A stretch of DNA of 64,000 nucleotides. Origin: an uncultured Acidobacteriota bacterium (GTDB lineage: Bacteria; Acidobacteriota; Terriglobia; Acidiferrales; UBA7541). The notes under the pieces are model-generated. The model was not told the DNA's origin. It ran no database searches and was given only the letters and a program-made list of their open reading frames with translations. The translations under genes and the position numbers were made by a program. The DNA is taken from contig CAWCQU010000004.1 in assembly GCA_963797765.1 (NCBI GenBank), forward strand, positions 444,094 through 508,093. Reading direction: 5' to 3'. Shown here one piece after another: positions 17,900 to 39,623 of this stretch (positions within the stretch are counted from its first letter, which is position 1; the number at the start of each line of letters is the position of its first letter).

Positions 17900-17926
17900 A
17901 CAGGTTGTGGAAAAATGCACTTGGAT

Positions 17927-17986
17927 GTCATTCCGAACGAAGCGCGTAGTTTGCGTCCCGATTGTTTTGATCGGGGCGAGGAATCC
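17927..17986. repeat. REP-like nested stem-loop element, copy A (outer ATTCC/GGAAT, inner CCCGAT-tgttttg-ATCGGGG, then CGAGGAA)
   Basis: Same architecture as copies at 21571-21618, 40136-40176, 50157-50195 and 47456-47489. Confidence 0.5.
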
Positions 17987-18086
17987 AGAATAAATCCCAC
18001 GTGCCTGAGATGTCGGGATTTTCTCCATGCCTCTTCTGGAATGCCATTCCATCGCGGAGCAATTCTTGAATTTTTCCGCAAACTGT

Positions 18087-21504: not shown

Positions 21505-21570
21505 TTTCGGCTCGGCTTGCGAACAACAATTATCGCTAAGCACTCCCTTCTCGTGTCCACACGTATCCCC

Positions 21571-21618
21571 GTCATTCCGACAGAGCCCCGATGCCGTTTC
21601 TCGGGGCGACGAGGAATC
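21571..21618. repeat. REP-like nested stem-loop element, copy B (GTCATTCCGAcagagCCCCGAtgccgtttcTCGGGGCGACGAGGAATC)
   Basis: Between the convergent tonB-like and aminotransferase genes. Shares GTCATTCCGA...CGGGGCGAGGAATC with copy A. Confidence 0.5.
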
Positions 21619-21685
21619 TCCTTACCATTCCCACCGCACACAAAAATGAGAATCCAGGCGGACTCAAACAACTCACTCGGTTCTT

Positions 21686-22822
21686 CTACACCGACAAAAT
21701 CGAAATCAGCCGCGCCATATCGCTCTCCGTATTGTAAAGGTGCGGCGAAATCCGCAATGCTCCTTCGCGCAAGCTTACAAACACCTGCGATTCCGTCAAC
21801 TTCTTGTGCATGGCGGCGGCTTCGCCTTCCCGCCTAGTTGACACGCAGATAAACGGACCCCGGTGTTGTGCATCTTCGGGAGTAACCAAAATGCAGCGGT
21901 CGCGCGGCAACCGTTCGATCATCCCGCGAATCAGGTTTTGATTGTGATTCCAAACCGTATCCACACCCACTCGCAGCAAATATTCGAGCGAAGCTTCCAT
22001 CGCCGCCAGATTCGTGAAGCTCGCCGTCTCTGGTGCGTCCCAACGGCGTGAGCCACTTGAGAATCTCAATTCTTCCACCGCCAACGAGCTGAAATTGTCC
22101 GCTCCCTCAAGGGCCGTCCAATTGGCAGGGGCTGGGCGCATCTTCCCGATCAGATCGCGGCGAATCCAGAAGAATCCTGTCCCATAAGGACTCAGCAGCC
22201 ATTTATATCCCGCACAGGCCAGAAAATCGGCGCCCAGCGCGGCCGCGTCGATCCTCATCGCCCCAGCGCACTGGCTCACATCGATCAGCAGGTACGCGCC
22301 CACGGCGTGGCATGCGTCCGCCAATCGGCGGGCATTGATTCGAACCGCGTTATCGAAGCGCACCAAGCTGGTTGAAACAACTTTCGTGCGAGGCCCGATT
22401 TGCGCGATGAAATCTTCCGCCGTCAAAAAGCGTTCGCGCGGAATTACGCGCTTCACGTGGATGCCTTCGGATTTTTCGAGCGGCAGCCAGATGGAAAAGT
22501 GCGCCGGAAATTCCCCGCTTGCCACCAGCACTTCGTCGCCCGCCTGAAAATCAATTCCGTGGGCCACCGCGTTCAATCCCCCGGTTGCCCCAGTGGTGAT
22601 GGCAATTTCATCCGCGCTTCCGCCGATCAGCCGGGCCGCGAGGGCCCTTACACGGTCCGGTAAACCGAACAGCAATCCATCGGGAATTTGATACGGTTTC
22701 CTTTTCCACTCGAGCGCCGCCCGGGCGGCTTTGACGGAAAGATCCGGCAGAGGCCCCTGCGACGCCACGTTCAGGTAAGTGGCGCCTTCAAAATCGGCGA
22801 AGTCCGAGCGATAATCCGTCAT
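21686..22822 (-). CDS. class V aminotransferase / cysteine desulfurase-family PLP enzyme
   Basis: Fold-type I PLP layout, with the conserved lysine in CAGYKWLLSPYGTGFFW. Confidence 0.75.
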   Translation of the reverse strand: MTDYRSDFADFEGATYLNVASQGPLPDLSVKAARAALEWKRKPYQIPDGLLFGLPDRVRALAARLIGGSADEIAITTGATGGLNAVAHGIDFQAGDEVLVASGEFPAHFSIWLPLEKSEGIHVKRVIPRERFLTAEDFIAQIGPRTKVVSTSLVRFDNAVRINARRLADACHAVGAYLLIDVSQCAGAMRIDAAALGADFLACAGYKWLLSPYGTGFFWIRRDLIGKMRPAPANWTALEGADNFSSLAVEELRFSSGSRRWDAPETASFTNLAAMEASLEYLLRVGVDTVWNHNQNLIRGMIERLPRDRCILVTPEDAQHRGPFICVSTRREGEAAAMHKKLTESQVFVSLREGALRISPHLYNTESDMARLISILSV

Positions 22823-22886
22823 GTAGAAACCTGCCTCTCAATTTGTCCGGGATCACAACGAACCATTCGATGCCGGCGTGATGCGT

Positions 22887-23573
22887 TTAGAAGTGATTCT
22901 GAAGATCGCGAAAACTGGCAATGATCAGCAGTTTCCCCGTGCCGCTTTCAAGTTCCGATTTCTCGATCTCCCACGTGGCCGGATGCGGAATAAAAACCGC
23001 GTTCAATCCCGCGTGCAGCGCGGGATTGATATCGCTGCGCGGGCTATTTCCTACCATCCAACTATTCGCCTTCACCACGCGCAATTGGTGCACCACGCGT
23101 TCATACGCGGGCAAATCCTTTTCCGCCAGAATTTCAATGGCGTCAAAAAATTTCTGCAAGCCCGACCGCTCCACTTTGGCCGCCTGTTCCGCGGCTTCGC
23201 CTTTGGTCAGCAGAATCAGCCGGTGGCGGCCTTCCAGGTAGGAAAGCGTTTCGGGAACTCCGTCCAGAATTCGCGGCGGCGTGTTTTCCAGCTCCAGCGC
23301 CATGCGCTCGATTTCCTTCACCAGTTCGCGGCGCGCCATGTTTCCTGCCAGCTTCAGGTAGCAATCTTCGAGCGAGCGGCGAAAACTGCGCACTCCATAG
23401 CCGTGCTGCCGGATATTGCGCCGCTCCGTTTCGTTCAGAATTCGCCGCGCGTAGTCGCGCGTAAATCCCAGCGGCTCGATATGGCCGAGAAAACAGTCGA
23501 TGGTCTGCTCGAAGAAAATATTGCTTTCCCAGAGCGTATCGTCGGCGTCGATCAGCAATGTTTGCCGTGCCAT
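22887..23573 (-). CDS. HAD-family hydrolase
   Basis: LLIDADDTLW (DxD motif I), ILLTKG (motif II), VGNSPRSD (motif IV). Confidence 0.8.
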   Translation of the reverse strand: MARQTLLIDADDTLWESNIFFEQTIDCFLGHIEPLGFTRDYARRILNETERRNIRQHGYGVRSFRRSLEDCYLKLAGNMARRELVKEIERMALELENTPPRILDGVPETLSYLEGRHRLILLTKGEAAEQAAKVERSGLQKFFDAIEILAEKDLPAYERVVHQLRVVKANSWMVGNSPRSDINPALHAGLNAVFIPHPATWEIEKSELESGTGKLLIIASFRDLQNHF

Positions 23574-23651
23574 TCAGCGATTCCTCTCCACGTTCCCTTT
23601 TGCGGTCACACCGATTGCATTTCACAATAAAATGAGGCAACTTCCGCGAAG

Positions 23652-23879
23652 TCAGGAAGCTTTCCGCACACCCACCACAAGTTTTTCCAGAATGCCGCGA
23701 GCAATTTTCTGAACTTCGCCAAATTGGGTGAGATATTCCTGGAACTCGCGGTTCAATTCGAGCGCGTCGCCGGCATCCAGCTTCGTTCGCAGGATCATGT
23801 CTCGCAAGCGAACCGGGTGGGGCAGCGTGGCGTCATCGCGTAATTCTTCGAGCGCTGTATTCGGGTCGTAGTGATACAT
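23652..23879 (-). CDS. small hypothetical protein (75 aa), probably co-transcribed with the HAD gene
   Basis: Good SD (GGGAGGGACGC-ATG) and a helical, charged composition. Confidence 0.5.
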   Translation of the reverse strand: MYHYDPNTALEELRDDATLPHPVRLRDMILRTKLDAGDALELNREFQEYLTQFGEVQKIARGILEKLVVGVRKAS

Positions 23880-23933
23880 GCGTCCCTCCCTGGGGATTTC
23901 GCGGAATCATTGTACTGCCATTTTGAAATGGGA

Positions 23934-24260
23934 TCAGGCCGCGGCGGGGAGAAATTCGTAACGTTCGATTCGCGCAGCGACCCCTCGAAAAGGACTCTGG
24001 TCCTCCACGCGGAGCACCTTGGCGTAGCAGCGGATATGCACATCGCCCGCCAGCGTGATGCGCTGCGGCAACGTGAGGACCAGTTCGATCGAATCGCCGG
24101 TTTCTACGGAAGAATCCACCATGAAGTAAAGACCCCGGAAGCTCACGTCGCGGGTCTCCGCGGATTGCTCCACAAAACCGTTGTCGGTGGGAATTCGAAC
24201 CTTGATGGGAAGCGCCATGTTGAAGCGGCGAGCGGCGCGACGCTCAACCGAATTTTCCAT
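23934..24260 (-). CDS. PilZ domain protein (c-di-GMP receptor)
   Basis: RRAARRF ... DVSFRGLYF, i.e. RxxxR and DxSxxG. Confidence 0.7.
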   Translation of the reverse strand: MENSVERRAARRFNMALPIKVRIPTDNGFVEQSAETRDVSFRGLYFMVDSSVETGDSIELVLTLPQRITLAGDVHIRCYAKVLRVEDQSPFRGVAARIERYEFLPAAA

Positions 24261-24468
24261 TGTGCCCTGCCCCCTGGCGCGTATCTGCCGCAAACCCTAG
24301 CAAATAGCCGTTTAAAGCGCAACGAGATTTCGGAACGTGATCTTTCGCCAGCGCGCCTCAAACTACACTTCTTAGATGCGCCAGCCATCGAAATTAATTC
24401 GTCGCGGGAAAAATAAGTAAGGCCACAGGCGCGGCGTTTGACCTGACCGCCCGGTGCCGCTAGGATGA

Positions 24469-25095
24469 ATGAACATGTTTCGCGCAGCCGTGATATCGGA
24501 GCGACGGCTTCACTCGCGCGCCCAGATCGAATTGCCGGTGCGATTGCGGTGGCTCACCCCGTTCGGCTACCGGTTCGCAATCAGCCAGACGATTGATGTT
24601 TCCCGCGCTGGCTTGCTTCTTGCGCTTCCGGAGCCGTGTGATCTTGGCGCTCGCGTTTGGGTAGCCATGCCGTTCGATCCCGCCGAAACGGCGGCACAGC
24701 CGGAAACTCCCGCTCGCATAGTCCGTTCGGAATTGATTTCTTCGACGAGATATCGAGTGGCGCTCGAATTTAAATCGCCAGCTCATTCGACGCAGCGCGG
24801 AGTTAAGCTCGAGCGCCGCAAAAGCGCGCGGGTTTTGCTCGCCTTGCCGGTGACCGTCCGTCCAGCCAACACGCCGTGGCCGGAGGAGACGATGACCACG
24901 GATATCTCAGACGGCGGCCTGCGCTTCGAGACAGCGCGCTTCTATACCGCGGGCGAATCCGTGCTCATCCAATCGCATCATGGCATCCAGGCTCGCAGGG
25001 GTGAAATCGCGGCGCATGTGGTGCGAATTGAAGCGGGCGCGGGCGAAACCGAACAGCGCGCTGCCGTCCAATGGATTGAGTTGCGGGATTCGTAG
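24469..25095 (+). CDS. tandem PilZ domain protein
   Basis: ERRLHSR...DVSRAGLLL followed by ERRKSARV...DISDGGLRF. Divergent from the other PilZ gene. Confidence 0.7.
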   Translation: MNMFRAAVISERRLHSRAQIELPVRLRWLTPFGYRFAISQTIDVSRAGLLLALPEPCDLGARVWVAMPFDPAETAAQPETPARIVRSELISSTRYRVALEFKSPAHSTQRGVKLERRKSARVLLALPVTVRPANTPWPEETMTTDISDGGLRFETARFYTAGESVLIQSHHGIQARRGEIAAHVVRIEAGAGETEQRAAVQWIELRDS

Positions 25096-25142
25096 CTTCG
25101 ATTTCCTGAGAGGAGCAGGACGTCAATTTTAACGAGGAAACG

Positions 25143-25817
25143 ATGGCTGACGTTTTCCATCGCACGGTGAATCTGAACGGCTCAGCCGGGAGGCTGGAGG
25201 GGCTGCTGTGGACTTCACGTCTGGATAATCCATCCGTTGTCGCGGTGGTCTGCCATCCGCATCCCCTGTTCGGCGGGACGATGCACAATAAAGTTGTGTA
25301 CCAAGCGGCGAAAACCCTGCACCGGCGCGGAATGGCGGTGCTGCGATTTGATTTTCGCGGCGTGGGATTGAGCGAAGGCGCTCACGACAAAGGACGCGGC
25401 GAAGCGGACGACGTTCGAGCGGCACTCGATTACCTCGCGGCGGAATTTCCATCGCGGCCGGTTCTGCTGGCGGGATTCAGTTTCGGCGCGTGGGTGGGAT
25501 TGCGGGTGGGCTGCCAAGATTCGCGGGTGACGGATTTAGTGGGACTGGGAATTCCTGTAAACGATTCCGATTTCTCCTATCTGCACGATTGCGCCAAGCC
25601 GAAACTTTTTCTGATCGGAGGGCGCGACCAGTTTGCCTCGCGGAATCGCGCCGAAAAACTTTTCTTGCAACTTCCCGAGCCGAAGAAACTTTTCTTCGTG
25701 AATGACGCGGACCATTTCTTCAAAGATCATCTTCCGGAAATGGCCGCTGCGCTCGATTCCTGGCTCGCCGGGCGCTATCCGGACTTGAAGGCGCTCGCGC
25801 CGGAACACGGCGGCTGA
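25143..25817 (+). CDS. alpha/beta hydrolase (dienelactone hydrolase-like)
   Basis: Nucleophile elbow GFSFGAW, SD GAGGAAACG-ATG. Confidence 0.75.
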   Translation: MADVFHRTVNLNGSAGRLEGLLWTSRLDNPSVVAVVCHPHPLFGGTMHNKVVYQAAKTLHRRGMAVLRFDFRGVGLSEGAHDKGRGEADDVRAALDYLAAEFPSRPVLLAGFSFGAWVGLRVGCQDSRVTDLVGLGIPVNDSDFSYLHDCAKPKLFLIGGRDQFASRNRAEKLFLQLPEPKKLFFVNDADHFFKDHLPEMAAALDSWLAGRYPDLKALAPEHGG

Positions 25818-25844
25818 TCTGATTTCACGCCAGCGATGTCACGC

Positions 25845-26980
25845 TCAGCGTCCCGCCTCGAACAATTTTAGAAATTGATCGCGCGGCGCCGGTTCGACGG
25901 CGGCGAGCGCAAGATTCGCGAGCACGTGCTCCGGTTTGCTCATGCCCACAAGAACCGTGGTAATTCCCGGAGCCGAACGCGCGAACTGCAAAGCGCGTTC
26001 ACGATCATTCGCCAGCCCCAACGCTTCGGCGACAAACGGCGGCAGGCCTTTCGCCAGCTGACCCTGCAGTAACGCAGCGCTGGTGACCAGCGTGATTCCC
26101 AGCGGCCGCGCCGCCTGCACCATGGAAACCTGCCGTTCGCCAACCTTCTGATTCGGGCGGGTGAGCGCTTCGTGCATCGCCAGGTTGAACGGCAACTGCA
26201 CGAAACGAAAATGATGCGCATCGCCGCCTGCCTCGCGCGCCAGCCCCAGCATTTCCTCGAGCGAAAGATAATCCTGCGCGGATTGGTCCTGCCGGAACGC
26301 GTTCCAGGTGGCCAGGCCGTACATGCGAATCTTTCCGGCGTTCACGGCCAGTTCCAGGAACTGAAATGCGGCGCGGACGCGGCCATGGAAATCGTCGCGC
26401 GAAATTTCGCCCAATTGGGTTTCGGGATTGTGCAGGTACAAAACATCGATGCATTCGACGCCCAGATTTTTCAGGCTGCGCTCGATTTGATTTTCCAGAA
26501 AGCCCGGCGCCAGGCAATGGCAGCCTGCGGCCACTTCGTCGGTGTGAAAAATCCCGCGCTCCACGTATTCGCTTGTGAAATAGGGCAGCGGATCGGCCGG
26601 CATTTCGCCATCCGCGGTGAGAAATCCCGCCTTCGTGCACAAAATGATTTCATCGCGCGAGAATCCGGCGGCGAGCAATTGCGAAGCGCCGCGCCGACGG
26701 ATCGCTCGCTGCGCTGCAGCCGGTAATTGATCGCCGTATCGATTAAATTCGCGCTGTTTTCGACCGCCGCGATCACGGCCTCGGTGTAGCCCTGATCGGT
26801 TGCAGCATCCGGCTCGCCGAGGTAAGTGCCGATTCCGATGGAAGAGGTCTTCAATCCATTTTGTTCGCGGAAATGTCCGGCAGCGGCCTTGGCACCTATG
26901 CGCTCGACGTAGCGGCGCGTTCCTTCGGGCGTTGCATAACCCGGAATCGAAGCAGCAGGCGATGAGGCTGGTGATGGCAT
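25845..26980 (-). CDS. aldo/keto reductase, interrupted by a -1 frameshift near 26676
   Basis: The N-terminal 105 aa (..GIGTYLGEPD..IDTAINYRLQRSERSVGAAL) are in ORF 26471..26980. The remainder (LAAGFSRDEIILCTKAGF...YLHNPE...) is in ORF 25845..26678. Inserting one base in cgcaattg would give ...SVGAALRQLLAAGFSRDEII.... Confidence 0.7.
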
Positions 26981-27033
26981 GGATCCTCAGTGGCGCGAAA
27001 CCCCACGCACAAACCGGGCAGTATAGCAGATGC

Positions 27034-28239
27034 TCATGGTGCGGCGGCCTCCGCGGGCGGGTTCAAAACGCGGGAGCAGGCGCGAATGATGCGCCGGTAA
27101 GGCCAATCGCGCGCGTGGAAAAATATTTCGCCCTGGCGCGGCTTCGAATAAAACCAGCGCGTCAGCAGGGCAAGATGTTCGCCCAGAACTCCCGGGTCCT
27201 TTCGCACCATGGAATCTCCATTTTCTTTTTCAACGTGTTCGGCAGATTCAGAAACTGAATCGATCGCGGCTGGCGGCTCCAATTTCGCGCGCAAGATTTC
27301 TTCCATGGAACGCGGCTGGCTGGAAAGTTCGCCGAAACGAAGCGCAAATGGCTCGGCAATAATTCCGGCGCGAATCACGAAAACGGCGATGGCATTTTCT
27401 TCGGCGGACTTTTGCAGTATTACCGCGTCGAGTTCGTCCACGCGGCGGGCCAGTTCCGGGAATCCTTTCAAAACAGTTTCGGCCTTTTCGATTTTTTTGT
27501 GCAACGCCGCGGCGCGTTCAAAATCGAGCGCGGTGCTGGCGGCTTCGCGCTCTCGTTCCATTTCGTCCGTCAGCGCCAGACCACTGGTCGAGAGGGTGAC
27601 GAGGACCCGCGAGACTTCCGCGTCATATTCTTCTTTCGAGCAGCCCGCGAAGCAGGGGGCCAGGCACATTTTCATCTCGGAATAAATGCAGCCTGGATAC
27701 GCGGGATCACGGCGGATTTTGATCTGGCAGCGGCGGATTTTGAAGAGATTCAGAAATTCGTCGGCGAAGGATTCCGCGAATTTGCGATTGGGAAACGGGC
27801 CGAAGTAACTGCCGCCATCGGCGGAAATTCGGCGCGTGACGTAGCAGCGCGGATAGGCGTTTTTCATATTTACTTTCAGCAGCGCGGGGGGACGGACGCG
27901 CAGCCAATCGCGATATTTTCGCGGGAAGAGCCAGCGTGCGTGTGCGTAGAGGACGAGGGATTGTTCGAGTTTCGATCCGACGATGCGGTAGCGAATTTTC
28001 GCGGCGATTGCGCGCAGGTTGAGGCGCTTGCTTGCGGGATCGGGCGGACGCAAAATCCGCTCGGCGGCACGGCGCAGATCGGCTGTGCGGGCGAGATATG
28101 GTTCGGCGCCTTCGGCGCTTGATTCGACGAGGAAGACTGCAGGGCGCGCGGGCAATGCCGCGAAGAATTCTTCTTCGCGCGCAGCGTCGAATTCCTGTTC
28201 GCAATCAAGCGGTAGCATCTCCCTTCTCTTAAAGCCCAA
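27034..28239 (-). CDS. UvrC-homologous protein (degenerate GIY-YIG region, UvrC central region, 4-Cys and UVR motifs) lacking the C-terminal RNase H/HhH part. Cho-like.
   Basis: ...YFGPFPNRKFAESFADEFLNLFKIRRC...PAYPGCIYSEMKMCLAPCFAGCSKEEYDAEVSRVLVTLSTSG...TALDFERAAALHKKIEKAE. The true start may be the ATG at 28218 (MLPLDCEQ). Confidence 0.65.
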   Translation of the reverse strand: MGFKRREMLPLDCEQEFDAAREEEFFAALPARPAVFLVESSAEGAEPYLARTADLRRAAERILRPPDPASKRLNLRAIAAKIRYRIVGSKLEQSLVLYAHARWLFPRKYRDWLRVRPPALLKVNMKNAYPRCYVTRRISADGGSYFGPFPNRKFAESFADEFLNLFKIRRCQIKIRRDPAYPGCIYSEMKMCLAPCFAGCSKEEYDAEVSRVLVTLSTSGLALTDEMEREREAASTALDFERAAALHKKIEKAETVLKGFPELARRVDELDAVILQKSAEENAIAVFVIRAGIIAEPFALRFGELSSQPRSMEEILRAKLEPPAAIDSVSESAEHVEKENGDSMVRKDPGVLGEHLALLTRWFYSKPRQGEIFFHARDWPYRRIIRACSRVLNPPAEAAAP

Positions 28240-28257
28240 CTCTTAAACGCAATTTCA

Positions 28258-28290
28258 TGCCGGAACTGAAGCTCCGACCTCCTAAAAACC
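28258..28290. repeat. Conserved motif copy S1: short hairpin plus GAAGCTCCGACCTCCTAAAAACC
   Basis: Shares a 21-nt core with 34612-34632 and 40693-40713. Lies 17 nt downstream of the acyl-CoA dehydrogenase stop on the minus strand. Confidence 0.5.
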
Positions 28291-28306
28291 ATTTGTGAGA
28301 TAGCTT

Positions 28307-29452
28307 CTAATAACTTTTCAAAACCCAGGAAGCGATGACCAGGCGCTGAATTTCGCTGGTGCCTTCATAAATTTCGGTGATGCGCGCGTCGCGATAATTT
28401 CGCTCGACCGGATATTCCTGGCTGTAACCGTTGCCGCCGTGGATTTGAATGGCTTTGTGAGTGACGCGCGTGGACATTTCGCTGGCGAAAAGTTTCGCGC
28501 TGGCGGCTTCCATAGTGAAGCGCGCGCCGGCATCCTGTTTCCAGGCCGCTTTGCGAGCCAGCAGGCGGGCCGCTTCAATTTCAGTGGACATATCGGCGAG
28601 CATGAATTGAATGGCTTGAAAATCGAAGATGGGATGGCCGAAGGCTTGGCGTTCCTGCGAATATTTCAATGCCGCTTCGAACGCGCCTTGAGCGATGCCG
28701 ATAGCCTGCGAAGCGATACCGACGCGCCCGCCATCGAGAGTTGACAACGCGACTTTGTAGCCTTCGCCTTCGTTGCCGATTCGATTTGTAGCGGGAACTT
28801 CGCAATCGTTGAAGACAAGCTCGGTGCAGGCGCTGGCGTGAATGCCAAGTTTCTTTTCTTCTTTTCCGACAGCGAATCCCGGCGTACCTTTTTCCACCAC
28901 CAACGCCGTGATTCCTTTCTCTCCTTTTTCGGGATGCGTGTTCACGTAGACGATGGCGGCATCGGCAGCTCCGCCGTTGGTGATCCAGGCTTTTGTGCCG
29001 TTGATTACGTAGCGATCGCCTTTGAGAACGGCCTTGGTGCGGAGCGCGGCGGCGTTCGATCCAGCTTGCGGTTCGGTGAGCGCGTAGCATCCGATTTTTT
29101 CGCCGCGCGCGTAGGGCAGCAGAAATTTCTCTTTTTGCTCGGCGGTGCCGAAGCGATGGATCGGATCGCAGTACAGTGAATTCTGCACCGAAAGAATGAC
29201 TGAGGTGGAAGCACAGACGCGGGCGATTTCTTCAATGACGATGGTGTAGCTGATGTGGTCCATTCCCGCGCCGCCTTCTTCTTCGGGGAACGGCACGCCG
29301 GTCAGGCCGAGTTCGGCGGCTTTGTGGAAAAGGTCAAAGGGGAAATGGCCTTTTTCGTCAAGCTCGCGCGCGCGCGGCTTTACTTCGGCTTCAGCGAACT
29401 CGCGGACGCTGCGCTGGAGGAGTTGCTGTTCTTCGGTAAGGTCGAGATTCAA
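28307..29452 (-). CDS. acyl-CoA dehydrogenase; TTG start at 29452 preceded by GGAAGGAG
   Basis: LNLDLTEEQQLL...AELGLTG..., the catalytic region, and the C-terminal ...YEGTSEIQRLVIA. Confidence 0.9.
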   Translation of the reverse strand: MNLDLTEEQQLLQRSVREFAEAEVKPRARELDEKGHFPFDLFHKAAELGLTGVPFPEEEGGAGMDHISYTIVIEEIARVCASTSVILSVQNSLYCDPIHRFGTAEQKEKFLLPYARGEKIGCYALTEPQAGSNAAALRTKAVLKGDRYVINGTKAWITNGGAADAAIVYVNTHPEKGEKGITALVVEKGTPGFAVGKEEKKLGIHASACTELVFNDCEVPATNRIGNEGEGYKVALSTLDGGRVGIASQAIGIAQGAFEAALKYSQERQAFGHPIFDFQAIQFMLADMSTEIEAARLLARKAAWKQDAGARFTMEAASAKLFASEMSTRVTHKAIQIHGGNGYSQEYPVERNYRDARITEIYEGTSEIQRLVIASWVLKSY

Positions 29453-30230
29453 TTTATAGCTCCTTCCATTTGAGTGCTGGAGGGTGCGAGAGCGGAATTT
29501 TGATGGAGGTCGGAGCAAAAAACGGGAGTCGAAAAAGGCTCTCGAAAACAGACGATATAGGAGCGATTAGAAAACTGTATCTCGTTGAATTTTCGGATAG
29601 TTGCGGCTGTGCGACAGTGGTTGCTTCTGGCGATTAGCCAGGCGATTAGAAATGGGCGGCTTCGCATGTGATTGACCCGGGAAACTTCACTCGCAGAATG
29701 CATCCCATGATGGCTGCGTCGCGACTTAGCTTCCGCATTACTGGAAGCATATTCCGGAAAAGAAACGCCGCAGAATCCCAGAGAGCCACTGTTGGTAAGG
29801 TGAAACGGACTGTGGAAACTCTCTGTTTTTTGACCGTTCGGAATCTCCGCAGCAGGATTCTTTGCAAAGAAGATATTTTCGTTGATCGTATCAAACGCCG
29901 CAAACATATAACGGCAAGGGGGTTTATGGCCTTTTTGAGAGATATCAGTGCAAATCCCCCGGCCGTTTTTCGCAGCTGCTGTTGGCGCCGCAAGCATGAA
30001 ACCTTCTCCAAATTCCCAACATAACAGTGTACCACGCGAGTGCAAGCGACACGGTTTCACGGACGCTACGCGAGCAGGCTTCTCCGCCCCCTGGGCGGCG
30101 CAGCCGGACGCAGCCATTTTGGTTGTTTCACCGGCGATTTATAGAGACGAAACTGGTTCGCGAATTGTGGCTCGGTTGACAGGAAGCAGCAGAAAATTGA
30201 AGTTGTGATGCAAGCACGGGAGAATTCGAG

Positions 30231-30731
30231 ATGAATGTGGAATTGGTGATTGCTGCGGCTACTGATGAGGAGCGTGAGTGGGCAGCGCGCTTGATGGCGG
30301 GAACTGATCCGTGGATCCGGTTGGGGAGGGATTTGGAGCGGTGCCGAGTGGTTTGCAATGACCGCGAGGATTTATTGTACATCGCACATTTGAAGGATGA
30401 GGCTTGCGGGTTTTTGTTGATGCGGAGGCGCGGGGTGGCGGGGGCTCCTTATATTGTTTCGCTGGCTGTGCGAGAGGATTTGCGGGGGACGGGAGTGGGA
30501 TCGAGGATGCTGGAATTTGCGGAGGATTTTTTTCGGGGGGAGTCGCGGAATATTTTTATTTGCGTGTCTTCGTTCAATGGGAGGGCGCGGGAGTTGTATG
30601 AGCGATTGGGATATTTAGTGGTGGGGGAGTTTAAGGATTACATTGTTGACGGGGAGTCGGAGTTTTTGTTGTGGAAAGGGCTTTACCGCAGAGACGCTGA
30701 GGGCGCGGACGGAAGGAGAACGGGAAGATGA
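30231..30731 (+). CDS. GNAT family N-acetyltransferase with atypical codon usage (G/T-ending codons)
   Basis: Acetyl-CoA binding motif VSLAVREDLRGTGVGSRML. Codons GGG/GTG/TTG/GAG/TTT dominate, unlike the GC3-rich neighbours. Confidence 0.75.
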   Translation: MNVELVIAAATDEEREWAARLMAGTDPWIRLGRDLERCRVVCNDREDLLYIAHLKDEACGFLLMRRRGVAGAPYIVSLAVREDLRGTGVGSRMLEFAEDFFRGESRNIFICVSSFNGRARELYERLGYLVVGEFKDYIVDGESEFLLWKGLYRRDAEGADGRRTGR

Positions 30732-30895
30732 TTCGGGGGGGGCGGAAGAAAAAAAAGAAAGAAAGAAAAGGAACCGGAGAGATTCTTCGGGCCGGTCTTC
30801 GGCCCTCAAAATGACAATGGTGGGATTTTTGCGGGATGCCATTAAGGCTGGGAGTGCCCTTGAGATTGGAGTAGGTGGGACAGCCTAAAGGCCGT

Positions 30896-30946
30896 CCCCA
30901 CTAAAAACTTGGAGCCTCGCCTGCCGGCATCGGCGGGCGAGGCTCT
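30896..30946 (-). terminator. Terminator for the SPFH gene: GAGCCTCGCC-N11-GGCGAGGCTC then CAAGTTTTTAG, followed by a second GTGGGGACGGCC/GGCTGTCCCAC hairpin
   Basis: 10-bp perfect stem immediately after the stop codon at 30947-30949, with a T5 run downstream on the minus strand. Confidence 0.6.
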
Positions 30947-33055
30947 TTAGGTGAGTGGCCGCGGAGATTGGTTAATCGCGGGGTGGTAGGATATTTGCTG
31001 GTTTAATTTTGTCGGCCTCGTTTGTGGCCGCGGTTGCTGTTGGTGATGGTTCGGGCTTGGCGGCTGCGCCGCTGCTGCCCGGATGGTGGGTGCGCTGCCA
31101 TTACCGCCACCGTTGTTTAGGAAGCGCATGGCGGCGGAGGCCAGGCCGTCGAGTGCGCCGCCGCTGCCCGAGCTGGTCACCAGGATGTCTGGGACGAACT
31201 TGGCACGGCCTTCGGCTAACGCTGATACTACGTTTACGATGGCTGTGGCGTTGGAGCCCAGTGCTTCGACCTGGGCTCGGTAGCCGCGGGCGCGAGCGAG
31301 GCCGATCGCCTCGACTTCGGCTCCACGGGCCGTGCCGGTCTGGCGGATGAATTCGGCTTCGCCAGCAGCTTCGGCGGTGCGGGCGTCGGCGTTATTTCTT
31401 TTGATGTCGATGCCGACTTTGGAACGGGCCAGATCGGCTTGCATATCGGCTGTGCCCTTGGCGCGCTCCATTTCGATGCGTTCATCCTGCGAGGCTCGTT
31501 GTTTGCGGAACGTTTCGATTTCCTGATTGGCGATTTCGCGGTGGGTCAGAACGATGACCATGTCCTCCGGCAGGATCACGTCCTGAATGTAAACGCCCTT
31601 GGTTTCCACCTGATATTGCTCAAGCTGCTGCCGGATGTGGGAGAAAGCATCCTCCTGCACCTGGCGGCGCGTCTCGATGAAGCGAATCGCGGGCATGCTT
31701 TGCAAGGTGTCGCGGAAATGATTGCCGACGGCGGCCTGCAAGACTTCGTTGACCAGGTTCTTCATGGTGCCGACCATCGAAATAACGCGCGGCGCCTTGG
31801 TATCGGGCACATGGATCTGCACCTGCAAATCGATCTTGAAGACGAATCCCTCCTTGCTCTTGGCGACGATTTGCTGCAGTTGCTTATCGAGATTATGCGC
31901 TTCGGAAACCGCGTCGGCCCAGTTCAGATTCAGGATCGCGGTCGGCACGATTTCCGGCTCGTAACAGCGCGGGTTGAGTGGATACTTCCCGGTGCGCAGC
32001 GGTTCCTGCCAGATGCCGCGGTGTCCGGGATGAACCAGCGAGCCATATTTGAAATCGGTTCCTGAAGTATCCTCCGTGGGCAGGCCAACGTAAGCCTTGA
32101 TCACGGCAACTTCGCCTTGATTGACGACGAGCATCGGAACGAGTTCGACGCTGACGAGAAACGGATTCAAGGCGTAGGCGCCGTAGAGCAACGGATCGTG
32201 CTGCAAACCAATGCGGCCGCCGTTATCCAGGAAGGCCTGGAAATCCTGGTAATTGTTGTGGAGATGATTTTTGTTTCCGAGCAAGCGCTCGATCACTTCG
32301 GCGTCGCCGGCTTTTTTGCTTTCCATTTCGGAAACGTCAGCGAAACCGCCGAGACGGCTGGCGATGTCTCCCGAAGGCAGAGGGTCGCCTTCGTAAGTGG
32401 TGACGATGCCGATGGAGTCGAAGGTGAGACTGTCCTTGGCCACGCGCGGCTGAGGCTCGATGCGCTTCAATTCCAGCTGATCGGGACGAAGGCCGAGCGC
32501 CTCGGGAGTAAGGCGAGTGGTCCTGCCCATCTTGGCGCGTAATTCGGGAGAGACGGGGAGGCCGTAAACCTGGCTGCGGGTGATGACCATAAATCCCACC
32601 GGATGAATCGGAACCAGAGTTCCGGGAGGAAGCACGGGCCGCTGCACACCTTTTTGGCCGCCCAGCTGAACGAAGCTGCGCAGGTTGGAGAAATTAGCGA
32701 ATTCCTTGCGATAGACAGCGGACTTCGCGCCGATCGGAAGGGACTGGCCGACCTGGGCGATGACCACTCCGATTTCGCCGGCGGGGATTTGCACCCAGGG
32801 ATATTTTTCGACGGAATAGGTGTAGCACAACTTCCAACGCAGTCCGGGCATTAGAAGATCGGCCTGGTAGCCGGGCTCTCCATCGAAAGCGATGGGATTA
32901 TCCTTCGAGAGCTTCTTCCACGAGAATCGCTTGGTGACTAGGCCCACTTCCGTGGGGCCGATTCTGTGGATGGAAGCGAGGATCGTGTAAAGAAACACGA
33001 ACAACACCACAACCGCGAGCAACGTGATGGAACTGAACAGTGTGTCGCTAAACAT
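30947..33055 (-). CDS. SPFH/band-7 (flotillin / YqiK-like) membrane protein with a large N-terminal region
   Basis: N-terminal TM (ITLLAVVVLFVFLYTILA), then a flotillin-like PHB plus coiled-coil (...IETRRQVQEDAF...EIETFRKQRASQDERIEMERAKGTADMQADLARSK...EAAGEAEFIRQTGTARGAEVEAIGLARARGY). Confidence 0.75.
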   Translation of the reverse strand: MFSDTLFSSITLLAVVVLFVFLYTILASIHRIGPTEVGLVTKRFSWKKLSKDNPIAFDGEPGYQADLLMPGLRWKLCYTYSVEKYPWVQIPAGEIGVVIAQVGQSLPIGAKSAVYRKEFANFSNLRSFVQLGGQKGVQRPVLPPGTLVPIHPVGFMVITRSQVYGLPVSPELRAKMGRTTRLTPEALGLRPDQLELKRIEPQPRVAKDSLTFDSIGIVTTYEGDPLPSGDIASRLGGFADVSEMESKKAGDAEVIERLLGNKNHLHNNYQDFQAFLDNGGRIGLQHDPLLYGAYALNPFLVSVELVPMLVVNQGEVAVIKAYVGLPTEDTSGTDFKYGSLVHPGHRGIWQEPLRTGKYPLNPRCYEPEIVPTAILNLNWADAVSEAHNLDKQLQQIVAKSKEGFVFKIDLQVQIHVPDTKAPRVISMVGTMKNLVNEVLQAAVGNHFRDTLQSMPAIRFIETRRQVQEDAFSHIRQQLEQYQVETKGVYIQDVILPEDMVIVLTHREIANQEIETFRKQRASQDERIEMERAKGTADMQADLARSKVGIDIKRNNADARTAEAAGEAEFIRQTGTARGAEVEAIGLARARGYRAQVEALGSNATAIVNVVSALAEGRAKFVPDILVTSSGSGGALDGLASAAMRFLNNGGGNGSAPTIRAAAAQPPSPNHHQQQPRPQTRPTKLNQQISYHPAINQSPRPLT

Positions 33056-33329
33056 AAAATTTTTCTCCGCTGGTGCGGGCACACTTCCACGCCCGCCGTC
33101 TGCCGCGCGCTCGCCGGGGTATAACATGGAACGCCTTGAGCAGGCGCGCGAATTCCTTCATCAGAACTGGGTGATGTGTGGAAAACGGTTGGAGCTAGTT
33201 TTTGGTGTGGGCCCTCGCAAGCCCGAATGCGGCGCGCGACGCTTCTAGGACAAACGTGCGCGGCGCGGACCTGAGATACTCTGCTCAATTATCGGATGCA
33301 GGCGTCTGGGGAAGGATTCGGGAATCGAA

Positions 33330-33450
33330 TGGTAATGGTAGTACCAAGATTTGTTACGTAAGTGATTTGTTATGTTTGTGGGATGTTCGTGAAGTAGGGG
33401 GAGTTCGTTTTTACCGCAGAGACGCAGAGGTCGCCGACGGAGAGTGAATG
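33330..33450 (+). pseudogene. Degenerate duplicate of the GNAT gene 3' end, about 110 nt, matching 30620-30725
   Basis: Nucleotide similarity (TTACCGCAGAGACGCAGAGGTCGCCGACGGAG versus TTACCGCAGAGACGCTGAGGGCGCGGACGGAAGG). Translated match ...YVSDLLCLWDVREVGGVRFYRRDAEVADGE versus ...YIVDGESEFLLWKGLYRRDAEGADG. Confidence 0.5.
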
Positions 33451-33454
33451 GAGC

Positions 33455-33505
33455 GCGGGCGAGGCCCTTCGAGGCTCAGGATAGACGGAAGCCGGCTCCT
33501 ACAAC
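33455..33505. repeat. Mosaic repeat module R1 (GGGCGAGGCCCTTCGAGGCTCAGGATAGA ... GGAAGCCGGCTCCTACAA)
   Basis: Related to 39624-39670 and 50115-50205. Overlaps the HIT gene stop codon. Confidence 0.45.
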
Positions 33506-33993
33506 TGCACTGTGAGGGCGCGGTGGAGTTTTTCGTAGGTGGTGGGGAGGTCTTCTGGTTCCATGCGGGTTTCGGCGATTGTGGTCATGAAATTGGCGTC
33601 GCCATTCCAGCGGGGTAGGACGTGGAGATGCAGGTGGCCGGTTACGCCTGCGCCTGCCGAGCGGCCTAGATTCATACCGAGGTTGAAACCGTTGGGTTGG
33701 TAGATTTCGGCCAGGGCGGCTTGGACTCGTTGGGCCAGGCGGATATTTTCGCACATGGTGTCGGGATCGGCGGCGGCGAAATCGGAGATGTGGGCGTAGG
33801 GAACGATCATTACGTGGCCGGTGGTGTAAGGAAAGCGATTGAGGATAATGAAATTTTTTTCGGCGCGCAGGACGATCTGAGTACGGACGTCGTCATTGAG
33901 AGCGATGGCGTCGCAAAAAATGCAGCGGTCGCCGTCGTCTTTTTTGGCTTCCGCGATGTAGCGGTAGCGCCAGGGAGTCCAGAGGAAGTCCAT
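33499..33993 (-). CDS. HIT family hydrolase
   Basis: HLHLHVLPR histidine triad. Confidence 0.85.
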   Translation of the reverse strand: MDFLWTPWRYRYIAEAKKDDGDRCIFCDAIALNDDVRTQIVLRAEKNFIILNRFPYTTGHVMIVPYAHISDFAAADPDTMCENIRLAQRVQAALAEIYQPNGFNLGMNLGRSAGAGVTGHLHLHVLPRWNGDANFMTTIAETRMEPEDLPTTYEKLHRALTVQL

Positions 33994-34004
33994 CCCTTTG
34001 GAGG

Positions 34005-34361
34005 TCAGCTCCGGGGAGATTCGCCGGCGGGAGGCGGAGTGGGCGGAGGCGGAGCTGCTTCCGCGGCTTTGGCGATGTTGACGAAATCTTTTAATTCCTT
34101 GCTGGGCTTGAAGAAGGGAATTTTCTTCGGCGGAACGTCGACTTTGGCGCCGGTCTTGGGATTGCGGCCGATGCGGCCGCGGCGCTGGCGAGTGCGGAAG
34201 CTGCCGAAGCCGCGAATTTCGATTTTGTCGCTGTGCTGCAGCGCTTGAATGATGGAGTCGAAAATGGTTTCGACGACCATTTCGGATTCCTTGCGCGGCA
34301 ATTCGGTAACCTTGGTCACTTCCTCGACCAAGTCAGCCTTCGTCATGGTGTGCTCAGTCAT
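34005..34361 (-). CDS. ihfB: IHF/HU family DNA-binding protein (IHF-beta-like) with a Pro-rich tail
   Basis: ..GFGSFRTRQRRGRIGRNPKTGAKVDVPPKKIPFFKPSKELKD.. arm motif. Directly downstream of rpsA, as in E. coli rpsA-ihfB. Confidence 0.7.
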   Translation of the reverse strand: MTEHTMTKADLVEEVTKVTELPRKESEMVVETIFDSIIQALQHSDKIEIRGFGSFRTRQRRGRIGRNPKTGAKVDVPPKKIPFFKPSKELKDFVNIAKAAEAAPPPPTPPPAGESPRS

Positions 34362-34600
34362 TGCTCTCGGCTCCTCGCGAGACTGCGCGGATTAGCGCGC
34401 GAAAATCACCGTTCCGGGCTGGTGCAGAACCGGTGGGGCGATGGACTGCCTGTGCATATCACTAATCTGCCTGCAAGGTAAATGAAATTTACGAGCGGCG
34501 GGTTCCGGCGGCACACAAGGTTGAAGGTGCAAACCGCCGCAACGCTCCTTCTGATCGGAAGCTTCAGGGGCTAAAGCCCGCTTCTCTTGCAAACGCAAAT

Positions 34601-34632
34601 GTCGGAGCTAAAGCTCCGACCCCCTAAGAACC
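34601..34632. repeat. Conserved motif copy S2: GTCGGAGCtaaaGCTCCGAC hairpin plus CCCCTAAGAACC
   Basis: Between rpsA and ihfB. Shares the AAGCTCCGACCCCCTAAGAAC core. Confidence 0.5.
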
Positions 34633-34713
34633 TGGGCTAATCTCAAATCGGGACCCCATTCAAATTCGGGTGCTGTACAAACTCCAAATGCTGAGACACG
34701 CAGCAGGGACAAG

Positions 34714-36762
34714 CTAAGAGGTCCCCCGCTTGGCCATAATGGCATCACCGATGGTTGCATTGGGCGACGACTTGGAGGAACGATACTCTTCCATGTCGCG
34801 GCGTTCGACCTGCTTTACGGCGGCGCGATAGCTCAAACTGATCTTGTGCTGGTCCTTATCCAGACGGATTACTTTGAAATCGTATTCCTGGCCAGGTTCG
34901 AGCTTTGTGGCGGACGATTTGCCGGCGCCGCCGCGAGGCTGATTCTGCTGTTGCTGGCGATCACCCTTGTGCTTGCGCTCTTCGATTTCGGAAATGTGGC
35001 AGAGGCCTTCGATACCTTCGGCCAAGGTGATGAAGACGCCGAATTCAGCGGCGCGGGCGACTTTGCCGCGGACCACGTCATTCAACTTATGGGATTGGAA
35101 CCAATTGGCCCAAATGTCGTTGAGCTGCTTGATGCCGAGAGAGAGGCGGCGATGCTCGGCATCTACTTTGATGACCTTGGCTTCGACCGTGTCACCCTTT
35201 TTGAATTTTTCGCTGGGGTGTTTGATGCGTTCGGTCCAGCTCATATCGCTGATGTGGATGAGGCCTTCGACACCTTCTTCGATTTCGACGAAGGCGCCGA
35301 ATTCGGTCATATTGCGGACGCGGCCGGTGACGACCGTGCCGGCGGGATATTTATCGACTACATCCTGCCAGGGATCGGGCGAAGTTTGTTTCAGGCCGAG
35401 CGAAATGCGGTGCTGATCGGGCTTCACTTCGAGGACCACGACGTCCACTTCGTCGCCCGCGTTGACGATTTTCGAAGGATGCTTCATGCGCTTCGACCAG
35501 CTCATTTCGCTGACGTGGACCAAACCTTCGACGCCCGGTTCGAGCTGGACGAACGCGCCGTAATCGGTGACGCCGACTACTTTACCCTTCAGGCGAGTGC
35601 CCACCGCGAAACGCTCGGGGACCGTGGCCCAGGGATCTTCCAGAAGTTGTTTGCGGCCGAGCGAGATGCGCATTTTTTCGCGGTCGAATTTCAGGACTTT
35701 GACCTGGATATCGTCGCCGGGCTTGACAACTTCTGAAGGGTGCTTGACGCGTCCCCAGACGAGATCGCTGATGTGCAGCAGGCCGTCCAGTCCGCCGAGA
35801 TCGACGAAGACGCCGTAATCAGTGACGTTTTTTACTTTGCCTGTAGTAACCGCGCCTTCGGAAATGGTTGAGAGCAGAGCCTCGCGCTGGGTTTTTAACT
35901 CTTCTTCGAGAATCGCGCGGCGGCTGACCACTACGTTGCCGCGCTTGCGATTTACTTTGAGGACGCGACAGGTGATTTCTTTTCCCTTCCAGGCGTCGAG
36001 ATCATGTGTGGGGCGCACGTCCAGCTGAGAGGCGGGCAAAAATGCCCGAAGGCCGATATCGACGACCAGGCCGCCTTTGATGCGATCCACCGCGCGGCCG
36101 GTGATGGTGGTGTGGTCGCGATAGGATTTTTCAATATTCTCCCAGACGCGGCGGCGGCGGGCGCGCACATGCGACAAGATCACGTAGCCATCTTTGTGTT
36201 CGTGAGTGCGCTCGACTTCAATGGTCTGGCCGGACTGGAAGGGGATGCCGCCGAATTCGACAAATTCCTGGGCGGGGACCAGGCCTTCCGTTTTGGCGCC
36301 GAAATCCACGACCACGCCGTGCTCATTCACCGCGACTACATGGCCCTCAATTGTTTCGCCTTCCGTTGGCGCTGCTTGGGGCTCGGAATACTGCTCAATC
36401 AACTGCTCCATCTGCTCATTGGACTCGGAGGTGTCAGCCGAATCAGCATGCTCGGGCGGCGCGGGTGCGACGGAATCAGCCACGGCAGCGGCAGAGGAAG
36501 ATTCGACGGACGGGGCTGGATGAATTTCGGCTTGGGCGGAGGGATCGAGTTCGGTGGAACGCGGTTCGGAGTGTTCCGTATCGGCAACCGCAGCTTGAGC
36601 AGAGTCGTGATGGTGGTCCGATGGATTCTCGACGGCGCCGGAGCCGGGTTCGGTAGCGACGGCGGTAGCAGCGGCGGCCATAGCCGGGGCTACGGAGGCA
36701 GTGGCGCCCAAATCGGCGGCTGCGGAAAGTTGTTGGTCTTGGTTTTCCATCTCTGGCAGCAT
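34714..36762 (-). CDS. rpsA: 30S ribosomal protein S1 (six S1 domains) with an acidic/Ala-rich N-terminal extension of about 150 aa
   Basis: Six S1 repeats (GHVVAVNEHGVVVDFG..., ...). Start assigned to ATG 36762 (GGGGAG, 7 nt, ATG); the ORF track start at 36819 is also possible. Confidence 0.9.
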   Translation of the reverse strand: MLPEMENQDQQLSAAADLGATASVAPAMAAAATAVATEPGSGAVENPSDHHHDSAQAAVADTEHSEPRSTELDPSAQAEIHPAPSVESSSAAAVADSVAPAPPEHADSADTSESNEQMEQLIEQYSEPQAAPTEGETIEGHVVAVNEHGVVVDFGAKTEGLVPAQEFVEFGGIPFQSGQTIEVERTHEHKDGYVILSHVRARRRRVWENIEKSYRDHTTITGRAVDRIKGGLVVDIGLRAFLPASQLDVRPTHDLDAWKGKEITCRVLKVNRKRGNVVVSRRAILEEELKTQREALLSTISEGAVTTGKVKNVTDYGVFVDLGGLDGLLHISDLVWGRVKHPSEVVKPGDDIQVKVLKFDREKMRISLGRKQLLEDPWATVPERFAVGTRLKGKVVGVTDYGAFVQLEPGVEGLVHVSEMSWSKRMKHPSKIVNAGDEVDVVVLEVKPDQHRISLGLKQTSPDPWQDVVDKYPAGTVVTGRVRNMTEFGAFVEIEEGVEGLIHISDMSWTERIKHPSEKFKKGDTVEAKVIKVDAEHRRLSLGIKQLNDIWANWFQSHKLNDVVRGKVARAAEFGVFITLAEGIEGLCHISEIEERKHKGDRQQQQNQPRGGAGKSSATKLEPGQEYDFKVIRLDKDQHKISLSYRAAVKQVERRDMEEYRSSKSSPNATIGDAIMAKRGTS

Positions 36763-36877
36763 CGAAATTCTCCCCGCGGTCTCGACTGTTCGCCGCGGAT
36801 ACTTCCTCGAAGATTCCACCCCTGAGGGATAGAGGGAAACGGGGATCCAGCGGCAGTAATGAATGATCTCGACACGG

Positions 36878-36907
36878 ATGATACGCGCCCGTGCGAGGGG
36901 TTGTCAA
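36878..36907 (-). promoter_or_regulatory. putative rpsA promoter TTGACA-N18-TATCAT
   Basis: Minus strand cgTTGACAacccctcgcacgggcgcgTATCATccg, about 110 nt upstream of the start. Confidence 0.45.
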
Positions 36908-36946
36908 CGGTACGGCCTGTGGAGTTTTGGATGGCAGGAGCGGCTA

Positions 36947-37852: not shown

Positions 37853-38007
37853 GAAGCAAGCATAGGCGGCTCGTGGTTCCGACGCAAGTTGACTGGGCTG
37901 TGCAAGGCTGTGCGTCCTGTGGATAAGGGGAGGGACCTCGAACTTATCTTTCTGTGAAGTTAACGGAATTCACGGGATATTTTTGAACTTGCCGGCCCGA
38001 ATTTAGT

Positions 38008-38045
38008 TTGAGAAAAAGCACACAGCCAGGAGTGGCTGTGCTACT
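38008..38045 (-). terminator. Rho-independent terminator of the dnaJ-hspR transcript: AGCACAGCCActccTGGCTGTGTGCT then TTTTT, overlapping the hspR stop codon
   Basis: Minus-strand hairpin followed by T5. The same hairpin sequence recurs at 53531-53552. Confidence 0.6.
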
Positions 38046-38448: not shown

Positions 38449-38458
38449 GATTCCCTCC

Positions 38459-39613: not shown

Positions 39614-39623
39614 TTTTATCTAG

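Follow-up and report, generated by a model that had tools for sequence, protein, structure and literature searches.

Repetitive extragenic palindromic (REP) sequences and their associated tyrosine transposases (RAYTs) are the closest described systems to the repeat reported here. TnpA-REP, the RAYT of E. coli, binds single-stranded REPs in their folded form, depends on a conserved motif at the hairpin foot, and both cuts single strands and joins them again (PMC3333891, PMC3479197, PMC8266576). Tyrosine transposases flanked by long inverted repeats were described as "TIRtrons" or "TIRYTs" by Di Nocera et al. 2013, an acidobacterial group being the most sharply defined, and ORF1552 of Koribacter versatilis is a tyrosine transposase whose flanking long inverted repeats belong to a repeated family (PMC3733652). 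The DNA analysed here (the window) is a 64,000-nt stretch of an uncultured Acidobacteriota bacterium (assembly GCA_963797765.1, contig CAWCQU010000004.1, positions 444,094 to 508,093). It holds three sites (S1, S2 and S3) with a 21-nt motif and an adjacent hairpin, which are the conserved end of a 71-nt REP-type palindromic repeat scattered in the genomes of one group of soil Acidobacteria. The three sites are very probably copies of one REP-type family of the REP/RAYT kind, in a REPtron or "TIRtron" arrangement, since the repeat is palindromic and intergenic with an adjacent putative tag, inverted copies flank a RAYT gene, target duplications are lacking, and copies are gained or lost between relatives. 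The family is ordinary, though previously uncatalogued: it belongs to a known class of repeats, selfish or domesticated, and its RAYT is probably domesticated.

The unit resembled the REP/BIME (bacterial interspersed mosaic element) and TnpA-REP system of E. coli (Nunvar 2010; PMC3333891, PMC3479197, PMC8266576; structure 4ER8) in forming multi-copy intergenic palindromes with an unpaired motif beside a hairpin, and its arrangement resembled the E. coli REPtron in having a single Y1/HUH gene flanked by inverted repeats and no target duplication. The E. coli REP, a repeat of Gammaproteobacteria, has a GTAG tag and one bulged 35-nt palindrome, whereas the acidobacterial unit has a 12-nt tag (GTTYTTAGGGGG) and two different hairpins, is fixed at 71 nt, and is asymmetric and strongly strand-polarised. 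Shared with the TIRtrons were an acidobacterial Y1 transposase and long, partly self-complementary inverted flanks forming a genomic repeat family. The G-run motif reads GGGGWSAS in TIRYT flanks and GGGGTCGG here, and the Koribacter family was moderately abundant in one cultured strain (PMC3733652), as against at least 55 uncultured assemblies here. The Koribacter flanking repeat, compared by protein and description only, is likely identical to the 71-nt unit at the DNA level.

The REPIN-RAYT system of Pseudomonas fluorescens SBW25 (PMC3116915, PMC5581495) likewise combines a non-autonomous, two-palindrome intergenic unit with a RAYT at a conserved place, which here is mostly the aspS-mutL interval. 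A REPIN, however, consists of two inverted copies of the same REP in one long hairpin, while here two different hairpins follow one another, and the only inverted ends that pair in the consensus fold are short ones (TTAGGGG...CCCCTGA). Insertion sequences of the IS200/IS605 group (IS608, ISDra2), which transpose as single strands at replication forks, share an HUH/Y1 enzyme, subterminal hairpins with a short recognition sequence, the lack of target duplication and a strong replication-linked orientation bias; unlike these, the protein here failed the IS200 model, no tnpB was present, the gene lay at aspS-mutL in most loci, and small units were repeated. Correia (Neisseria) and ERIC/IRU (enterobacterial) miniature inverted-repeat transposable elements (MITEs) are also intergenic hairpin repeats of 70-150 nt, often co-transcribed and favoured 3' of genes. 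They have conserved terminal inverted repeats, a TA duplication in the case of Correia, and no cognate Y1 transposase.

Motif copies were gathered by an exact-pattern scan of one genome per species, a genome-wide search of the kind proposed in the preliminary description of this DNA, which yielded at least 110 stretches in at least 55 assemblies. Copy statistics cover 119 listed copies, oriented so that the motif reads GTTYTT. The source assemblies were nearly all Acidobacteriota (Terriglobia or Ca. Acidoferrales/Acidiferrales), with several copies per contig. The unit encompassed, in order, a head (GTTYTTAGGGGG), hairpin 1 (GTCGGAGC-TTCA-GCTCCGAC), ATAAAG with a variable spacer (about 20 nt), hairpin 2 (GGGGC-TTTA-GCCCC, or GGGGTT-TT-AACCCC) and the tail TGAGG. 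The head was a conserved, unpaired 12-nt sequence abutting hairpin 1, and the stems measured 8 bp in hairpin 1 and 5 bp in hairpin 2. Unit length was 70-72 nt in 57 of 59 canonical copies (one preceding base counted), and stem pairs were preserved in 55-59 of these 59 sequences. The recurring motif and hairpin reported earlier were recovered, while the conserved unit proved to be 70-72 nt long with two hairpins rather than 21 nt.

Conservation of the head is partly by construction, the loci having been fetched with it; heads beside RAYT genes fetched through their protein carried GTTYTTAGGGGG too. The head was not GTAG, and contained TTAG and a G-run akin to the GGGGWSAS of TIRYT flanks (PMC3733652). 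GGGGG was found in 112 of the 119 listed copies and GGAGG (the AGGAGG type of S1) in 7. The consensus fold also paired the head (UUUAG) with the tail (CUGAG), and an invariant U.G pair occurred in this predicted head-tail helix. Predicted open reading frames (ORFs) contained 8 of the 119 copies, several of which were apparently copies overlapping RAYT 3' ends.

Clustering of the proteins encoded beside motif copies displayed a single recurrent family. The same Y1-transposase ORFs, adjoining the motif in five different assemblies (L019, L035, L044, L087, L091), were detected by tblastn with E. coli YafM, a RAYT. The proteins, of about 180 aa, scored 124-128 bits against NCBIfam NF047646, "REP-associated tyrosine transposase" (cutoff 80), and passed the Pfam Y1_Tnp model, while failing the IS200 model (26-29 bits, cutoff 55). 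The sole PDB match was E. coli TnpA-REP (4ER8, E 8e-12), and residues H60, H62, Y120 and N124-P125-V126 (HUH and Tyr-x-x-x-NPV) were invariant in the alignment with it. The RAYT protein was also 40% identical to Koribacter versatilis ORF1552 (E 4e-33), and the ORF1552 C-terminus (...AGAKAP...) matched the peptide from the inverted hairpin 2 here.

The RAYT gene was bracketed by two complete 71-nt units, inverted and with heads outward, in all nine related loci, each from a different assembly. The upstream unit ended in ...GCCCCTGAGG (tail TGAGG) 4-8 nt before the RAYT start codon, and the conserved tail would thus be positioned like the ribosome-binding site (RBS) of the gene. The downstream unit overlapped the 3' end of the ORF and encoded its C-terminus (...SGAKAP...(S)ELKLRPPKN, or ...AKAPTP and stop). 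The first five loci had been fetched via the motif, while the reverse test fetched genes by protein similarity alone: a protein search gave 1406 homologues at E <= 1e-10, some of them already named "REP-associated tyrosine transposase", and four genes obtained in this way (five loci: L191, L192/L193, L194, L195) were again bracketed by two such inverted units, with unchanged spacing (nhmmer E-values between 1e-16 and 1e-19). Seven of the nine loci had the gene directly upstream of mutL and, wherever that side could be seen, aspS upstream of it; in L191 and L195 it lay elsewhere. The aspS-mutL placement suggests a fixed RAYT locus that may be vertically inherited.

At some loci the RAYT unit stood between direct duplications of host sequence. 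These comprised about 55 nt of the mutL 5' end (ATGAGCAGGATTCGCATACTCGC...AAGATCGCGGCGGG) in L192 (about 9860-9920 vs 10549-10610) and L194 (about 9870-9925 vs 10543-10600), and, in L087, about 51 nt from the upstream gene's 3' end. The pattern would fit insertion of the REPtron into the end of a gene, with duplication later restoring that end. L109 encoded another kind of Y1_Tnp protein (1710-2246, minus strand; 178 aa; 52.9 bits in Pfam) away from the motif. In the alignment of PMC3733652, its likeness was to the second group of acidobacterial TIRYTs (aba 3477 / tsa 392). Judging from these sequences, the genomes may hold more than one tyrosine-transposase/repeat pair.

In the window, AAGCTCCGACCYCCTAARAAC had three exact plus-strand matches (28269-28289, 34611-34631 and 40693-40713) and no other match, even allowing three mismatches; 100 dinucleotide-preserving shuffles of the window gave none. 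Read on the minus strand, each site displayed GTTYTTAGGRGG followed by a GGAGC/GCTCC hairpin. The genes around the sites encode acyl-CoA dehydrogenase (acd), ribosomal protein S1 (rpsA), an HU/IHF-family protein and the Hsp70 DnaK (dnaK), and the three copies lay 4-83 nt 3' of stop codons, all sense to the flanking genes. The preliminary description was therefore accurate as to the three copies 3' of minus-strand genes, the identities of these genes and the hairpin that follows the motif. The units and their parts were as follows.

28226-28290, minus strand: S1, a REP unit truncated inside hairpin 2 (nhmmer E 6.6e-11, model positions 1-61).
28278-28289, minus strand: head of S1, GTTTTTAGGAGG.
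28261-28276, minus strand: hairpin 1 of S1, CGGAGC-TTCA-GTTCCG, with one G.U/G.T pair.
Within 28226-28239, minus strand: hairpin 2 of S1, only the 5' half left (TTGGGCTTTA).
34562-34632, minus strand: S2, a complete 71-nt REP unit (nhmmer E 5.3e-19, model positions 1-71).
34620-34631, minus strand: head of S2, GTTCTTAGGGGG.
34601-34620, minus strand: hairpin 1 of S2, GTCGGAGC-TTTA-GCTCCGAC.
34562-34579, minus strand: hairpin 2 and tail of S2, GGGCTTTAGCCCCTGAAG.
34632-34657, minus strand: left flank of S2, GGGGTCCCGATTTGAGATTAGCCCAG, resembling the left terminal arm GGTGCTGTCCTAATTTGAAATTAGCCTAG of the class C composite element.
40572-40714, minus strand: S3, a REP unit with two nested inserts (nhmmer E 7e-08).
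40702-40713, minus strand: head of S3, GTTTTTAGGGGG.
40693-40701 and 40647-40657, minus strand: arms of hairpin 1 of S3.
40658-40692, minus strand: nested palindromic insert of about 34 nt, CCGCGCGGTTTGTG-TCCCGAT-GTGTTCG-ATCGGGA, in the loop of hairpin 1 of S3, at CTTY^AG.
40622-40629 and 40577-40587, minus strand: arms of hairpin 2 of S3.
40588-40621, minus strand: another insert of this kind, more diverged, occupying the hairpin 2 loop of S3 (ATGCGTCTTTGGCG-TTCCGAC-TCTTTG-GTCGGAA).
40572-40576, minus strand: tail of S3, TGAGG.
29498-29516, plus strand: possible relic (TTTTGATGGAGGTCGGAGC) upstream of the acyl-CoA dehydrogenase gene, oppositely oriented and consisting of a head with the hairpin 1 5' arm; it may also be a chance match.

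The GTTTTT of S1 began 17 nt past the acd stop, as reported, and that of S3 began 4 nt past the dnaK stop, which it adjoins at 4 rather than the 5 nt given earlier. S1 was followed directly by the RBS and ATG (28216-28218) of the next gene, and its hairpin 1 paired fully only in the minus-strand reading, via the G.U pair. The predicted folds of S2 and S3 had minimum free energies of -29.8 kcal/mol (z -2.6) and -54.8 kcal/mol, respectively. Profile search (nhmmer) of the window displayed no additional units beyond S1-S3, apart from palindromic self-matches, and missed the possible relic; hairpin 2 searched alone matched only hairpin 2 of S2. No right arm matching the left flank of S2 was found within the window. 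The window, of about 58% G+C, contained no tRNA or transfer-messenger RNA (tmRNA) gene and no rRNA gene. Rfam gave zero matches at the gathering score over the whole window, and zero at the three sites with E up to 10 (28000-41000).

Solo units showed no target-site duplication above the permutation expectation (k = 2-5). The unit was found 3' of dnaK in none of 80 related metagenome loci (DnaK identity 69-86%), which gave two weak matches elsewhere, and most of the inspected close dnaK relatives carried a plain GC-rich hairpin at the place of S3. In another species (L018), the spacer between rpsA and ihfB likewise lacked it, so that conservation in relatives did not hold at the same places.

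Unit orientation followed the replication strand. GC skew on the head-first strand was negative in 104 of 114 listed copies (91%; mean -0.070; GC3 skew, at third codon positions, -0.16; p 7e-21), and this polarity towards the C-rich strand held in 49 of 52 assemblies, with surrounding genes sense or antisense. Coding strands overall had no net GC skew. The window obeys the rule, its plus strand having a skew of +0.08 to +0.13 near S1-S3 while the reading strand of the units is the minus strand; the three copies share their orientation because it tracks the replication strand rather than the genes. This unusually clean replication-strand polarity is the feature of the family worth following. 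Listed copies in tandem context were sense to genes in 42 cases and antisense in 21 (p 0.011; crude gene caller), and convergent spacers holding copies outnumbered divergent ones by 28 to 9, which is the usual pattern of repeats surviving best 3' of genes. Orientation tracks GC skew much more closely than gene direction.

The cumulative G-C of the window had a minimum near 25 kb (region of about 20000-28000) and rose steadily to 63 kb. A skew switch near 25 kb is of the kind seen at a replication origin and would mean, if genuine, that the transcription of rpsA and dnaK opposes replication.

A primary role at the RNA level, as an element of the 3' untranslated region (3'-UTR) blocking 3'-5' exonucleases, as an attenuator of transcription or as a small RNA, is improbable. 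Sense orientation and closeness to stop codons in the window, together with the sense and convergent excesses (42:21 and 28:9), would fit such a role, as would the G.U pair that lets hairpin 1 of S1 pair fully on the minus strand only and the invariant U.G pair of the head-tail helix; E. coli REPs are moreover reported to stabilise upstream mRNA (PMC3733652, PMC3479197). However, one third of the tandem copies were antisense, GC skew (91%) predicted orientation far better than gene direction did, and the polarity persisted in copies amid antisense genes. Lack of conservation after dnaK or rpsA in relatives and of any Rfam match points the same way, as does the persistence of both the truncated S1 and the insert-interrupted S3. 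The G.T pairs are equally possible in single-stranded DNA, and the unit forms the inverted flanks of a transposase gene. The earlier suggestion of a 3'-UTR stabiliser or small RNA was therefore abandoned as the main role; by analogy, a stabilising or attenuating effect on upstream mRNA may be a side effect of the unit.

About one third of the listed copies lay inside longer elements with inverted arms. In the class C composite (L076, L108, L090), the arms read GGTGCTGTCCTAATTTG.. and were bordered by 8-bp direct duplications in L076 (GGCTATTC) and L108 (AACTCGAG). The class A composite had arms CAGGYTGCGGAAAA and flanking YTAR/TTTA-like tetranucleotides; its members included L002, L004, L027, L040, L045, L047, L083 and L092, and it was multi-copy within the metagenome-assembled genomes (MAGs) CAVOOP and CAWKDI. 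Such arms and duplications would be expected of a classical MITE moved by a DDE transposase through terminal inverted repeats, an explanation that is nonetheless very unlikely for the unit itself: the arms varied by class while the inner 71-nt unit was constant, the reverse of a MITE family, two thirds of the listed copies had no outer arms, solo units had no target duplication, and the only consistently adjacent transposase was the Y1 RAYT. The composites rather suggest that MITE-like elements, mobilised by other transposases, carry REP units along as passengers.

Two further interpretations of these flanks were discarded. Class-specific left flanks (such as ..TCCTAATTTGAAATTAGCCTAG) had suggested copies downstream of the same gene, rpsA, across species, which was ruled out by tblastn and clustering of flanking proteins; by their sequences, the flanks belong to larger composite elements. 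Neither do the outer inverted arms represent a covarying P1 helix of a structured RNA, as they sort into separate classes that recur, target duplications accompany some of these classes, and two thirds of copies have no such arms. A class-A-like arm (CTAGACAGGTTGTGGAAAAATG) stood alone in the window at 17896-17917.

The repeat in the loop of S3 hairpin 1 corresponds to the CCCGAT hairpin (CCCGAT/ATCGGG) that had been noticed within the stem, and L008, L038 and L106 had it at an identical point of the loop; hairpin 2 carried a comparable insert in L006, L038, L046 and L105. The consensus of the nested element was CGCGCSNNTTGYG-TCCCGAY-loop-RTCGGGA, always at CTTY^AG of the loops of hairpin 1 or 2. 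From its sequence, the insert of about 34 nt has the look of a nested repeat that targets loops, and may be a REP of the GTAG type. A related 49-nt inverted pair occurred in the window (17941-17989 and 47446-47494), the free-standing copy at 17941 reading GCGTAGTTTGCG... Another insert, in or beside the REP hairpins of L023, L028, L033, L098 and L081, contained a GTAG tag and a palindrome (GTGTAGCGCCRCCC-TTYA-GGGYGGCAT). TTYA hairpin loops were common to several repeat families of these genomes.

That the sites are an unusual or bidirectional family of transcription terminators, spread by duplication, is also highly improbable. Of the three sites, a simple scan flagged S2 alone, at hairpin 1 (GTCGGAGCTTTAGCTCCGAC then ATTTGCGTTT), and close dnaK relatives carried a plain GC-rich hairpin where S3 sits. 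But neither hairpin was followed by a T-run (the consensus continues with ATAAAG and TGAGG, respectively), the T-run being 5' of the hairpin, so that the preliminary description rightly set the motif apart from intrinsic terminators. Terminator-like sites in the region numbered 18, against 19.7 expected from shuffles, and a third of the copies were antisense.

The notion of a ribosome-binding element, in which AGGAGGU on the minus strand would act as a Shine-Dalgarno sequence or ACCUCCU on the plus strand would mimic the 16S rRNA 3' end, can hardly be right: AGGAGGT is present in S1 and the majority form AGGGGGT could pair with CCUCC via one G.U, but GGAGG is no general feature of the family (7 of 119 listed copies), no ATG, GTG or TTG lies 5-12 nt further on, where the stem of hairpin 1 is found instead, the RBS-like sequence at the RAYT gene is the TGAGG tail at the opposite end from the head, copies occur in both orientations relative to genes, and the G-run matches the GGGGWSAS-type motif flanking tyrosine transposases (PMC3733652).

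Under the REP/RAYT reading, and by analogy with E. coli TnpA-REP, the RAYT would bind the folded hairpin in single-stranded DNA and read the adjacent conserved head, then cut and rejoin single strands, so that units would be copied or moved, probably at replication forks, without target-site duplication. S1-S3 would then be solo units whose landing or survival was tolerated because short spacers 3' of genes allow it. Only for the systems of E. coli, S. maltophilia and Marinomonas has the enzyme been shown to bind and cleave the single-stranded repeat (PMC3333891, PMC8266576); we infer that the RAYT described here mobilises the 71-nt unit, with single-stranded DNA as its substrate, and that the genome of the window encodes one. 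The strand polarity fits a single-strand mechanism, in which either strand could be the processed one.

Several points weigh against this reading. No RAYT gene was found in the 64-kb window by tblastn, and the link for its genome comes from relatives. The head was not the canonical GTAG and, compared with the GGGGWSAS of TIRYT flanks, agreed at 7 positions of 8 only (GGGGTCGG). On the G-rich strand, which by the usual convention is the lagging-strand template, the hairpins came first and ...CCCCCTAAAAAC after them, which puts the tag on their 3' side, while the E. coli tag lies 5' of the hairpin on the processed strand. Neither a transposition event, an excision footprint nor recent identical copies were shown, and absence at orthologous sites may reflect loss as well. 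In addition, the 42:21 and 28:9 ratios suggest selection on copy survival, and some host-level effect is possible.

At least four unrelated small repeat families were found in the window. Two copies of a classical-looking GTAG REP, 91% identical, lay on the reverse strand at 38011-38045 and 53522-53556 (AGTAG-CACAGCCA-CTCC-TGGCTGTG-CTTTTT) and were flagged as terminator-like by the simple scan. Two more intergenic families occurred at 33457-33490, 39626-39659 and 50115-50148, and at 30682-30723 and 33410-33451 (GGGCGMGGCCCTTCGAGGCTCAGGGTAGA..., TTTACCGCAGAGACGC.GAGG...). A repeat around GTCATTCCGARCGAAGCG...AGGAATC was widespread, being found downstream of dnaK in L140 (about 3500-3700) and L117 (about 2150-2330), and in the window at 17925-17990 beside the 17941 palindrome.

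Motif contigs were also filed under MAGs of Baltobacteraceae, Limnocylindrales, Methylomirabilota and a Thermoplasmata archaeon (L063, L082, L091 and L093). L091 carried an acidobacterial RAYT-mutL locus, and the four are probably mis-binned acidobacterial contigs. The exact 21-mer marks the lineage, and can be used to flag mis-binned contigs in metagenome-assembled genomes.

Recognition of the motif as part of a REP guards against its annotation as a regulatory RNA or a ribosome-binding signal. With the 71-nt unit, a DNA partner is defined for a RAYT family of which uncultured soil Acidobacteria have many members, and whose REP was undescribed. It is possible, if on the whole doubtful, that the family is a natural record of RAYT-driven REP spread on one strand at replication forks, with a possible host use of the polarised and very strongly conserved 21-mer as a replichore-oriented signal or an mRNA 3'-end element. 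One-strand, fork-linked spread has so far only been hypothesised for REPs, and an asymmetric, strand-polarised unit such as this one could help to test how REPs are disseminated, a process whose mechanism is poorly understood (PMC8266576).

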